A stretch of 64,000 nucleotides of DNA from contig DASRDY010000285.1 in the NCBI GenBank assembly GCA_035652355.1, forward strand, positions 24,300 through 88,299, in the 5' to 3' direction. The DNA is from Blastocatellia bacterium (GTDB lineage Bacteria; Acidobacteriota; Blastocatellia; DASRDY01). The notes below the pieces were generated by a model, which had not been told where the DNA came from, ran no database searches, and saw nothing but the letters and a program-made list of their open reading frames with translations. A program made the translations under genes and the position numbers. Every line of letters starts with the position of its first letter. Within the stretch, counting starts at the first letter, position 1. Below, piece by piece: positions 57,061 through 57,537 of the stretch.

Positions 57061-57537
57061 ATGAGCAAGAAAGAGACGAAGCCCTGCGCCAGGAGCAAGG
57101 GACTGGTGGTACAAAAGCTGGAAGGAGAAGTGCTGGTCTATGACACAGAGAAGCAGCAGGCGCACTGCCTCAATGGAACGGCCGCACTGATCTGGGAGCA
57201 GTGTGATGGAACGAGAACAGTGAAGGAACTTGCCGGTCTGCTTCGAGGAGATGTAACAGAGCGAGAGAGGGAAGAGCTGGTCTGGATCGCGCTTGAAGAG
57301 CTAAACAGATCAAATCTGTTGGAAGAGCCGCTGGCACGACCATCAGCCATAAGCGGACTCAGCCGAAGACAGATGCTGAAGGCAGCCGGGGTTGCGGCCA
57401 TGATCGCGGTTCCTGTCGTGAGCACAATAGTAGCACCAAAAGCAGCACAGGCATCGACTTGTCTTCCGACCAGCGCCGGTTGCACGATCAGCGCTCAATG
57501 TTGCAGCGGTATCTGCTCTGGCGGCGCGTGTGCGTAA
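57061..57537 (+). CDS. PqqD-like (RiPP-recognition-element-like) domain fused in frame to a Tat-type signal and a 27-aa six-cysteine peptide
   Basis: Residues 1-95: LVVQKLEGEVLVYDTEKQQAHCLNGTAALIWEQCDGTRTVKELAGLL…LNRSNLLEE matches the PqqD consensus. Then SRRQMLKAAGVAAMIAVPVVSTIVAPKAAQA, which is an SRRxFLK-like twin-arginine motif, an h-region and an AxA site. Then STCLPTSAGCTISAQCCSGICSGGACA, with spacing C-x6-C-x6-CC-x3-C-x4-C. Confidence 0.6.
   Translation: MSKKETKPCARSKGLVVQKLEGEVLVYDTEKQQAHCLNGTAALIWEQCDGTRTVKELAGLLRGDVTEREREELVWIALEELNRSNLLEEPLARPSAISGLSRRQMLKAAGVAAMIAVPVVSTIVAPKAAQASTCLPTSAGCTISAQCCSGICSGGACA

Follow-up and report, generated by a model that had tools for sequence, protein, structure and literature searches.

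Known RRE domains are parts of enzymes or free adapters that bind the leader peptides of RiPPs. The stretch of Blastocatellia DNA analysed here (64 kb, hereafter the window) holds a gene that departs from this arrangement. Its RRE lies within what appears to be the precursor itself, the leader that follows is signal-like, and the protein ends in a short tail with six cysteines. Two questions arise. Why should a leader-binding domain be joined to its own putative ligand? And how could a segment that looks like an export signal work from the middle of a protein, behind a folded domain? We favour, at a probability of about one half, a reading in which the protein is a RiPP-like precursor carrying its own RRE: the leader would double as a Tat-type signal, and signal peptidase would free a disulfide-knotted peptide.

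All features described below lie on the forward strand. The reading frame (57061..57537) begins with ATG, ends with TAA and encodes 158 amino acids. A Shine-Dalgarno sequence read from the DNA, GGAG (57052..57055), stands 5 nt ahead of the start codon. An intrinsic terminator at 57561..57599 follows the gene, with a hairpin at 57561-57594 and then U5 (-25 kcal/mol, z -4.0); a consensus terminator scan did not pick up the hairpin at 57561-57594. Upstream, between this gene and the one before it, lies a long intergenic hairpin (56929..57029, -61 kcal/mol, z -3.8) that none of 200 shuffled sequences equalled in stability. A reading made from the sequence alone had described the frame as a PqqD-like domain fused to a Tat-type signal and a cysteine-rich tail, with a terminator of its own. 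Its coordinates, strand, terminator and architecture are confirmed by the sequence and by homologues, and every peptide string it quoted is found in the frame. Its suggestion that an internal TTG (codon L87) serves as a separate start did not hold up; the TTG has no Shine-Dalgarno sequence, and the family gives no sign of a second product.

By profile match and predicted fold, the N-terminal domain (residues 10-90, 57088..57330) is a PqqD/RRE domain, as the sequence-only reading had it, and is predicted to be cytoplasmic. It matches Pfam PF05402 over residues 23-72 at 33.5 bits (gathering cutoff 23.4, E 5.3e-8), and so do all 106 relatives scanned. The AF2 model of the domain (pLDDT about 90) has three strands (15-20, 23-28 and 33-37) followed by three helices (39-47, 54-58 and 67-83) in a winged-helix fold. 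Its best Foldseek matches are TbiB1 (5v1u/5v1v, TM 0.76-0.80, rmsd 2.1 Å), 6jx3 and the PqqD structure 5sxy; the nearest folds are thus B1 RREs of lasso peptides, which have been solved with bound leaders. We propose that this RRE likewise binds a leader as an added strand. The domain is not the PqqD of PQQ synthesis: TIGR03859, the equivalog model, scores 16.8 bits against a cutoff of 46, and no radical-SAM gene is found among the annotated conserved neighbour clusters. TIGR04353, a family of PqqD chaperones, scores 16.9 bits on the window protein, under its 35-bit cutoff, and matches 46 of 106 family members at E<=0.01 (best member E 4.2e-6). A ToxR-type membrane-tethered DNA-binding regulator was also considered and rejected, the N-terminal domain being acidic (pI 5.2, net charge -3.4).

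A variable linker (residues 91-99, 57331..57357), with the highest column entropy of the protein (2.7 bits), leads into its most conserved part, the signal-like segment, which has an entropy of 0.97-1.4 bits against 1.28 for the RRE core. The segment opens with a twin-arginine motif, L-S-R-R-Q-M-L-K (residues 100-107, 57358..57381). It continues with a hydrophobic h-region (residues 108-126, 57382..57438) that contains [V/I]115-x-x-P118-x-V120 and has the lowest column entropy anywhere in the protein (0.97 bits). It closes with a c-region, K-A-A-Q-A (residues 127-131, 57439..57453), bearing an AxA site of the signal-peptidase-I type with a predicted cut after A131. Among 437 unique relatives, the motif is conserved as [STN]101 in 98%, R102 in 100%, R103 in 99% and [RK]107 in 93%, giving the consensus [STN]-R-R-[EQ]-[MLV]-[IVM]-[RK]; G110 is kept in 92%, P118 and V/I120 in 99% each, and P126 in 100%. 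At the predicted cut, position -3 is A, V, S, T or I, position -1 (A131) is alanine in 93-95%, and proline occupies position -6; the median distance from RR to AxA is 28 residues. Conservation this high points to sequence-specific binding. In the AF2 model residues 120-124 form a strand, within a stretch (100-130) modelled at low confidence (pLDDT 53-62). The sequence-only reading did not mention that conservation peaks in this segment.

Is the segment a Tat signal? The window protein shows the sequence pattern of one: the RR motif, an uncharged h-region and AxA. The h-region is the only hydrophobic segment in the protein, 19 residues long, with positive charge on its N-terminal side. The position is not that expected of a Tat signal, which would be N-terminal; here RR are residues 102-103, behind a folded domain, and the frame has no signal at its N-terminus. 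Curated Tat models stay below threshold on the window protein, PF10518 narrowly (20.8 bits versus 22.7) and TIGR01409 at 12.5 versus 16.7. Across the family, the Pfam model matches 11 and the NCBIfam model 10 of 106 members at E<=0.01, TIGR02811 (a Tat target) matches 44 of the 106, and the family profile has a weak match in the arsenite oxidase Rieske subunit, at its Tat-signal region. The claim of an internal Tat-type signal therefore stands in part: the segment is real, with both arginines 99-100% conserved and small residues at -3 and -1, but the curated models fall short of their thresholds. Internal Tat signals are known from actinobacterial Rieske proteins, and chaperones such as TorD and DmsD bind Tat signals and hold them until the passenger is ready. 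The present segment resembles known Tat signals in its invariant RR with Tat-like flanks, its long, weakly hydrophobic core and its AxA. It differs in following a folded domain of 95 residues and in having a passenger of only 27, and the putative chaperone acts in cis and has an RRE rather than a TorD fold. A lipoprotein reading was rejected. The bacterial lipobox rule is [LVI][ASTVI][GAS]C, a pattern not found here; the first cysteine is preceded by T in 71% and by S in 20% of 189 sequences, and A131, three residues before that cysteine, is alanine in 93-95%.

The tail, STCLPTSAGCTISAQCCSGICSGGACA (27 residues, 132-158, 57454..57534), contains six cysteines and no charged residue. The cysteines, at positions 134, 141, 147, 148, 152 and 157, are spaced C-x6-C-x5-CC-x3-C-x4-C; the x6 counted earlier for loop 2 was one residue too many. 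The six-cysteine framework is common to 174 of 189 relatives, bearing out the suggestion of an inhibitor-cystine-knot (ICK) tail, and is identical to that of U3-scytotoxin-Sth1a (5fzv), whose six cysteines all align with the family profile. The tail of the full-length AF2 model (pLDDT 82-94) superposes on the omega-atracotoxin structure 1hvw at an rmsd of 0.8 Å, and a model of the tail alone on omega-conotoxin FVIA 2km9 at 0.9 Å, both over 25 columns and both with non-significant E-values because the peptide is so small. HMMs of knottin families fall below cutoff on the window protein (UPF0506, 18.1 versus 23.2 bits; Conotoxin, 13.5 versus 25.1), and weak tail matches across 106 members are to ICK families only: UPF0506 in 60, omega-toxin in 18 and conotoxin in 10. 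A knot of this kind would have threaded disulfides I-IV, II-V and III-VI. C134-C148 (Cys I-IV) is the only cysteine pair among the top couplings of a mean-field DCA, at rank 21. Between the cysteines the tail is hypervariable, and the number of modules changes across the family; [T/S]133, at core position 2, is conserved in 96%, with Thr in about half of the family. The knot motif occurs 83 times, always in family reading frames and never elsewhere in the flanking DNA; a search of other proteins of these loci, such as the interior of the C25 proteins, likewise found none. Unlike spider and cone-snail toxins such as omega-hexatoxin-Hv1a, U3-scytotoxin-Sth1a and the omega-conotoxins, the peptide is bacterial and uncharged and lies downstream of an RRE and an internal signal, where the toxins have an N-terminal signal and propeptide, and the resemblance may have arisen by convergence.

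How widespread is this architecture? The same whole protein was found in 115 database entries at 40-99% identity, in 330 relatives from GTDB species-representative genomes (mostly Blastocatellia/Pyrinomonadaceae; scanned with a query built from 20 closer sequences) and, at E<=1e-30, in the representatives of 1,808 clusters formed at 50% identity. The fusion of RRE, signal and tail is uninterrupted in more than 400 sequences. The architecture is conserved across a very large family of soil bacteria and is not a chance fusion. The sequence-only reading held that its claim would fail or weaken if the PqqD match, the twin-arginine signal or the cysteine-rich tail proved absent or variable; we found the PqqD match, arginines conserved at 99-100%, small residues at -3 and -1, and six cysteines in 174 of 189 relatives. 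Like that reading, which knew of no such family, we found no description of an RRE with an internal signal and six-cysteine tail in Pfam, in NCBIfam or in a collection of 7.7 million papers. Genomes carry several paralogues of the peptide gene. In this respect, and in having a protein-sized leader domain and a short variable core, the family recalls the NHLP/Nif11 RiPP precursors. In those precursors the leader is something other than an RRE, and C39-ABC exporters cleave it at GG, unlike the signal-peptide route proposed here. DCA on the 437 sequences was aimed at a contact between RRE and leader. Artefacts from invariant columns dominated; it recovered plausible pairs within the RRE (H35-W75 and Q47-I76) and the Cys I-IV pair only, and so gave no support for an RRE-leader contact.

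The gene upstream (47163..56924) encodes a 3,253-residue surface protein with FG-GAP, nine DUF7933 and DUF11 domains and a C-terminal, PorU-like Peptidase_C25 domain by Pfam (residues 2920-3250, 255.8 bits). The closest PDB sequence match of this domain is PorU (6za2, E 9.4e-14), and its GHG histidine and its cysteine align with their gingipain R equivalents. The peptide gene begins 136 nt after the C25 gene ends, in agreement with the order described earlier. Such neighbours recur in other genomes, as that reading had proposed looking for: C25 genes flank 61 of 97 family members, almost always in the same orientation, and in a stricter count by domain all 29 C25 catalytic domains within 4 kb are on the same strand. 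In the window and its closest relatives the C25 gene followed by the peptide gene is the whole conserved unit, and this pair has been duplicated as such at L084, L023, L028 and L064. Roughly one family member in three lacks a neighbouring C25 gene, and in a distant subfamily, sampled thinly and mostly on metagenome contigs of 1-3 kb, the link is missing altogether.

A second linkage, absent from the sequence-only reading, ties the family to RiPPs of the LPP and paeninodin types. Within 500 nt of 57 of 97 genes lies an HprK-like kinase or a PF14907 nucleotidyltransferase; the transferase scores 98 bits, and the kinase matches TIGR04352 at 58.8 bits, under the 200-bit cutoff. The window has neither in its full 64 kb by HMMs built from the relatives. 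No Ser or Thr of the core distinguishes members linked to the kinase from unlinked ones, and a search for homologues of the kinase returned only close, unnamed relatives. The relatives' loci are polysaccharide loci, with Wzy_C, WecA-like, Wzz/GNVR and TPR genes. A motif scan of the family flanks found no SPase-I-like gene, and no ABC exporter stands among the annotated conserved neighbours, which fits use of the general export machinery. The annotated neighbour clusters also contain no lasso cyclase or B2 protease. Anti-phage defence was rejected, as PADLOC gave no match for the peptide gene, the kinase, the transferase, the C25 domain or their neighbours.

The closest parallel is a class of RiPPs, the linear polyphosphorylated peptides (LPPs), described in Bacillota and defined by the trio of RRE, HprK-like kinase and NTP-transferase (Popov et al. 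2026; PMC13381572). In LPPs, the leader motif is [Y/W]xxPx[V/L] and leader residues -12..-7 are paired with the sheet of the RRE, which offers the cut site to an SPase-I-like peptidase; phosphorylation by the kinase falls on core Ser3, and LppK did not accept Thr (PMC13381572). Both families set an RRE, an HprK-like kinase and an uncharacterised NTP-transferase in polysaccharide loci (PMC13381572), and both have a cut of the signal-peptidase-I type, here a predicted one. Both also have a Pro-x-Val leader motif, after which the next residues add a strand to the RRE sheet (here by our proposal), and a hydroxyl residue near the start of the core, Ser3 in LPPs and [T/S] at position 2 here. P118 and V/I120, each 99% conserved, fall in register with the motif, whose first position is V/I here versus Y/W in lasso peptides and LPPs. 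The two also differ. The RRE is discrete in LPPs and fused to the precursor here, where the leader is a hydrophobic, twin-arginine-type signal; the SipW-type leader peptidase and MsbA-like exporter of LPPs have no linked counterpart. The six-cysteine knot core, the diderm Acidobacteriota hosts and the C25 linkage are particular to the present family, T133 is, in about half of it, a residue that LppK rejects, and the window copy lacks kinase and transferase within 64 kb.

The lasso peptides paeninodin and pseudomycoidin (PMC8498205; 5v1u, 5v1v, 6jx3) offer a second comparison. Among solved structures, B1 RREs of this kind come closest in fold to the N-terminal domain; kinases and nucleotidyltransferases of the same types are their tailoring enzymes, and their leader motif lies at a similar register to the cut; here the RRE is fused to its substrate and no macrolactam is expected. 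The HPr-rel-A system of NCBIfam/TIGRFAMs (kinase A, TIGR04352; PqqD family chaperone, TIGR04353) follows the same three-gene logic. All scores here are under its curated cutoffs (200 and 35 bits), and the 74-position TIGR04353 profile includes neither signal nor cysteine tail.

On the reading that we favour, residues 10-90 would fold in the cytoplasm as an RRE, a PqqD-type winged helix. Residues 100-131 would act as a twin-arginine-type signal, with [STN]-R-R-x-hydrophobic-hydrophobic-[KR], an uncharged core of 19 residues that holds both conserved prolines, and AxA. Because just 27 residues follow the signal, targeting must be post-translational. Before export, the RRE would most likely dock in cis on its own leader. 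Counted from the cut, [V/I]115-x-x-P118-x-V120 stands at -17/-14/-12 and the predicted strand 120-124 at -12..-8, a register close to that in which RREs hold lasso and LPP leaders. In most relatives the RRE may then present the core to the HprK-like kinase and the PF14907 nucleotidyltransferase, with core position 2, where a hydroxyl residue is conserved (T133 in the window), as the candidate site of modification. The C-terminal 27 residues would be exported and signal peptidase I would cut after A131. The freed, uncharged peptide (2,450.97 Da reduced) would oxidise to an inhibitor-cystine-knot of 2,444.92 Da with three disulfides. In the window's clade it may serve as substrate or regulator of the adjacent PorU-like C25 peptidase. 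Among the options raised by the sequence-only reading, we thus combine a fused chaperone-precursor with a secreted knot peptide and find membrane-anchored display less attractive.

Other readings would each explain part of these observations. The knot peptide could primarily be the partner of the C25 peptidase, either an inhibitor or regulator that silences the protease in transit or a substrate with PorU-like leader removal, the RRE being only an aid to folding and export. The conserved and jointly duplicated C25-peptide pair and the aligned catalytic His and Cys of the PorU-like domain suit this idea; PorU is reported to cut at small residues, and plants have knottin-type protease inhibitors. 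It is rather unlikely all the same, because it leaves the RRE and the kinase/transferase link unexplained and no C25 gene lies near about a third of members or anywhere in the distant subfamily; we know of no knottin inhibitor of clan CD peptidases. We find it less plausible still that the product is an uncleaved type II membrane protein, with the RRE on the cytoplasmic face and the knot displayed in the periplasm, where it would receive, dock or relay signals for the C25 surface protein or the polysaccharide machinery. Its single 19-residue hydrophobic segment with positive charge on the N-terminal side could be a stable anchor, the segment's unusual conservation could reflect helix-helix contacts in the membrane, and a secreted C25 protein is encoded in close pairing with the gene. 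Against this, small residues at -3 and -1 (A131 in 93%) and proline at -6 (100%) are kept as in cleaved signals, two conserved prolines interrupt the segment, neither invariant arginine is exchanged for lysine, and a tail that is hypervariable between its cysteines and changes in module number is unlike a receptor domain.

The remaining possibilities would keep the leader or the core in other roles. Residues 100-131 might be a cytoplasmic leader of the LPP type, bound by the RRE and cut by an SPase-like enzyme encoded elsewhere, with the core leaving by another route or being retained. The P-x-V register matches that of LPPs, whose SPase-I-like enzyme cuts its leader, with the RRE, in a membrane-free translation assay. 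Yet LPP leaders are polar, unlike the 19-residue uncharged hydrophobic stretch behind an invariant RR; a six-cysteine knot framework requires an oxidising compartment, and the neighbourhood has no conserved gene for an SPase-like enzyme or an ABC exporter, which leaves this quite improbable. It is very improbable that the six cysteines are ligands of a metal or cluster taken up in the cytoplasm and that the Tat-type signal serves to export the loaded, folded passenger. Tat typically serves cofactor-bearing passengers, and the RR motif is invariant; but the cysteine spacing is identical to that of disulfide-knot toxins, the core lacks His, Asp and Glu ligands, and no metal-site family in Pfam or NCBIfam matches. 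We give least credence to two products, with translation starting anew at the TTG of L87 or the ATG of M105 to give a short pre-peptide, and the RRE made alone. Both codons are in frame, but the TTG lacks a Shine-Dalgarno sequence, M105 lies downstream of the RR motif, and the fusion is unbroken in more than 400 sequences.

The precursor reading can be carried one step further, to a model that we regard as speculative and somewhat doubtful. The RRE would clamp its own Tat signal in cis and so gate export until tailoring at core position 2 (phosphorylation, nucleotidyl or glycosyl transfer) is done; the exported knot would then control, or be processed by, the surface PorU-like C25 peptidase. 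These peptides would be the first widespread ribosomal knottins of bacteria.

By analogy, the family looks like a fused, signal-driven relative of the LPP RiPPs reported in 2026 (PMC13381572). If docking in cis is right, the recognition of RiPP leaders is tied to Tat/Sec export and to processing by signal peptidase; the SPase-like leader peptidase of LPPs gave only a hint of such a link in 2026. The RiPP logic of kinase and transferase, which has been reported from Bacillota alone, would extend to soil Acidobacteriota and on a far larger scale, with about 1,800 clusters at 50% identity. The family would supply a natural bacterial source of hypervariable knottin scaffolds, and it points to a partner of the many PorU-like C25 peptidases that stand as orphans outside Bacteroidota. 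It also offers a candidate type of substrate for the uncharacterised HPr-rel-A cassette, for which we know of none. Should gated export prove true, these soil bacteria would use a new biosynthetic logic, one that unites RiPP leader recognition with general protein export.

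The ORF at 57061-57537 on the forward strand is as the sequence-only reading had described it: 158 amino acids from an ATG start, with GGAG five bases before the ATG. The PqqD domain claimed for it is recovered by Pfam (PF05402, residues 23-72, 33.5 bits; cutoff 23.4). At residues 100-114 the TAT_signal model stays below its cutoff (20.8 against 22.7), the cysteine-knot families UPF0506 and Conotoxin match the tail weakly and below threshold, and no NCBIfam model scores at or above its own cutoff on the ORF. Six cysteines with knot-type spacing had been reported; they are present, at 134, 141, 147, 148, 152 and 157, but the second loop is one residue shorter than stated (x5, not x6), giving C-x6-C-x5-CC-x3-C-x4-C. 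The gene does follow the giant C25 protein, 136 nt after the end of its gene, and has the strong terminator ascribed to it, a hairpin with U5 (-25 kcal/mol, z -4.0). The upstream protein (3,253 amino acids) carries FG-GAP, nine DUF7933 and DUF11 domains, with Peptidase_C25 at its C-terminus. The observation is confirmed and its interpretation was largely right, with the choice among its own alternatives still standing.

This architecture belongs to a family and is not an accident. A word-indexed search returned 115 full-length relatives of about 155-175 amino acids (40-99% identity), annotated as 'hypothetical' or 'PqqD'. Scanning a single genome for each species gave 330, the best 80 of which come almost entirely from Blastocatellia/Pyrinomonadaceae MAGs, commonly with several paralogues per genome. 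Against 1.84 billion cluster representatives, the profile had 5,816 matches at E<=1e-10, of which 1,808 reach E<=1e-30. All 106 aligned members match PqqD and 60 match UPF0506; omega-toxin, conotoxin and other ICK families are matched by smaller numbers. TAT_signal is matched at E<=0.01 by just 11 of the 106, while two NCBIfam models give sub-threshold matches throughout: TIGR02811 (Tat target) to 44 members via the signal region, and the HPr-rel-A PqqD model to 46. The knot motif is confined to family ORFs (83 occurrences versus 0 in the rest of the flanking DNA). Full-text literature searches found nothing on an architecture of RiPP recognition element (RRE), Tat-type signal and six-cysteine tail.

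The evidence best supports reading the gene product as a RiPP-like precursor with its own RRE, in which the leader doubles as a twin-arginine-type signal. Rival readings make this segment an uncleaved anchor or a cytoplasmic leader only. Over 437 unique family sequences, [STN]101 (98%), R102 (100%), R103 (99%), [RK]107 (93%) and G110 (92%) are conserved, and the motif [STN]-R-R-[EQ]-[MLV]-[IVM]-[RK] agrees with the Tat consensus. So are P118 (99%), V/I120 (99%), P126 (100%), A131 (93%) and [T/S]133 (96%). A median of 28 residues separates the arginines from the AxA site, with a small residue at -3 and Pro at -6 relative to the cut. Conservation peaks in the signal-like segment, with a column entropy of 0.97-1.4 bits (RRE core 1.28, linker 2.7), which is not how ordinary signal peptides behave. 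A lipobox was considered and rejected, since Thr usually stands directly ahead of the first Cys.

Two further rival readings are a metal-binding passenger and two separate products. Six cysteines occur in 174 of 189 tails, with loops 1-3 fixed in length and the last loops variable. AlphaFold2, given the family alignment, reached a pLDDT of 80.5 overall (RRE about 90, tail 82-94, residues 100-130 only 53-62). In Foldseek against the PDB, 25 columns of the tail superimpose on omega-atracotoxin 1hvw with 0.8 A. When the tail was modelled alone (pLDDT 76), its four PDB matches were all ICK toxins, with non-significant E-values. Among PDB sequences, the family profile matches U3-scytotoxin-Sth1a (E 0.019), with every one of the six cysteines aligned, and gives a weak match (E 0.15) to the arsenite oxidase Rieske subunit in its Tat-signal region. 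Some members are extended by a second knot, longer Cys-rich modules or a self-cleaving Peptidase_S74 domain behind the knot. The database protein P0244 has such a chaperone domain (44 bits), and P0166 an intein-like domain at a sub-threshold 18.6 bits; in others there are two or more Cys-rich modules.

In Foldseek the modelled RRE most resembles lasso-peptide B1 RREs solved with their leaders (6jx3; TbiB1 5v1u/5v1v, TM 0.76-0.80, rmsd 2.1 A). PqqD 5sxy and the RREs of other RiPP enzymes come next. Within this cytoplasmic domain, C36 (57166-57168, on strand 3) and C48 (57202-57204, ahead of a DG turn) are at least 90% conserved and kept in the consensus of eight distant-subfamily sequences; H35, next to C36, is conserved in the Blastocatellia clade only. 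A structural, redox or metal role for the two cysteines is possible.

What does such a precursor resemble? The closest described system is the linear polyphosphorylated peptides (LPPs) of Bacillota, whose clusters lie inside capsular polysaccharide loci and encode a precursor, an HprK-like kinase, a discrete RRE, a SipW-type leader peptidase, an MsbA-like exporter and an NTP-transferase (PMC13381572). The LPP leader motif YxxPxV binds the RRE, residues -12 to -7 add a strand to the RRE sheet, and the RRE presents the cut site to the signal-peptidase-like enzyme (PMC13381572). Here the candidate counterpart is [V/I]115-x-x-P118-x-V120, at -17/-14/-12 from the predicted AxA cut, and AlphaFold2 predicts a strand at 120-124 (-12 to -8), within its low-confidence region. 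The LPP kinase polyphosphorylates Ser3 of the core (PMC13381572). The present family has a conserved hydroxyl residue at core position 2. The same kinase and transferase types tailor the lasso peptides paeninodin and pseudomycoidin (PMC8498205).

We clustered the ORFs of 82 loci and annotated representatives. The commonest neighbours are large co-oriented C25 proteins (59 loci; same strand in 105 of 112), with 263 bits on Pfam C25 and a sub-threshold match to the PorU 'T9SS sortase' model. In 46 loci the next gene downstream is a PF14907 nucleotidyltransferase, and in 32 the one directly upstream is an HprK-related kinase (TIGR04352, 58.8 bits); other frequent neighbours are TPR/CBM, Wzy_C, WecA-like and Wzz/GNVR genes. 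A C25 gene adjoins 61 of 97 family genes, and a kinase or transferase lies within 500 nt of 57. Among the 60 genes with 4 kb or more on each side, 47 are accompanied by one or more of these partners (C25, kinase, transferase), and every one of the 29 C25 domains nearby shares the gene's strand. The kinase (L016, L031 and other loci; P0264-P0383) keeps 70-97% identity over hundreds of metagenome proteins, and the adjoining precursor is far less conserved (40-60%). A few kinase copies bear a precomputed PF27840 tag; our Pfam scan gave no PF27840.

The window holds only the conserved C25-peptide pair, with no kinase or transferase within its 64 kb; the closest relatives have the same bare pair, sometimes twice per contig. 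PorU (6za2, E 9.4e-14) is the nearest match to the window's C25 domain, whose GHG histidine and cysteine line up with the gingipain R residues. A distant 'AFCLNE[TS]' subfamily from metagenomes, whose context is thinly sampled, has kinase and transferase without C25, so the kinase link may be older and the C25 link clade-specific.

Around the gene, the 136-nt spacer contains a long imperfect hairpin (56929-57029, +; -61 kcal/mol, z -3.8) that lacks a U-tract and that none of 200 shuffles equals. A processing or stability function is possible; the hairpin is probably not conserved, since relatives' spacers are much shorter (about 50-265 nt). Three tandem Phage Tail Collar genes, each with PF07484 (45195-46821, +), directly precede the giant C25 gene; at the relative's locus L001 a Collar and a DUF7933 gene likewise precede the pair. 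Downstream, a lower-GC stretch (57600-60400, 44-48% against about 55%) contains a tRNA (58787-58858, -; ARAGORN 'Pyl', Rfam tRNA 63.5 bits) that is well formed, has a short variable arm and carries the amber-reading anticodon CUA. The stop codon of the giant C25 gene a little upstream is TAG. The tRNA may act as a suppressor or belong to an inserted element. Two reverse-strand ORFs share the stretch, one of 66 amino acids (58984-59184) and one of 177 (57982-58515) without a Pfam or PADLOC match.

In the RiPP-like reading, the RRE would dock in cis on its own leader, as the segment's extreme conservation, the register of the motif and the low-confidence strand suggest; coevolution analysis gave no confirmation of this docking. 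Export must be post-translational, since only 27 residues follow the signal. A motif scan found no SPase-like gene in the family flanks, and annotated conserved neighbours include no ABC exporter; general export and signal peptidase I would stand in for the peptidase and exporter that LPPs dedicate to the task. The resulting knot peptide would be uncharged, 27 residues long and 2,444.92 Da when oxidised, and it may be a substrate, regulator or inhibitor of the C25 protein. The family would be a variation on the RRE/kinase/transferase logic of RiPPs, and it is unusual in three respects: the fusion of RRE and precursor, an internal Tat-type signal and a bacterial knottin core.
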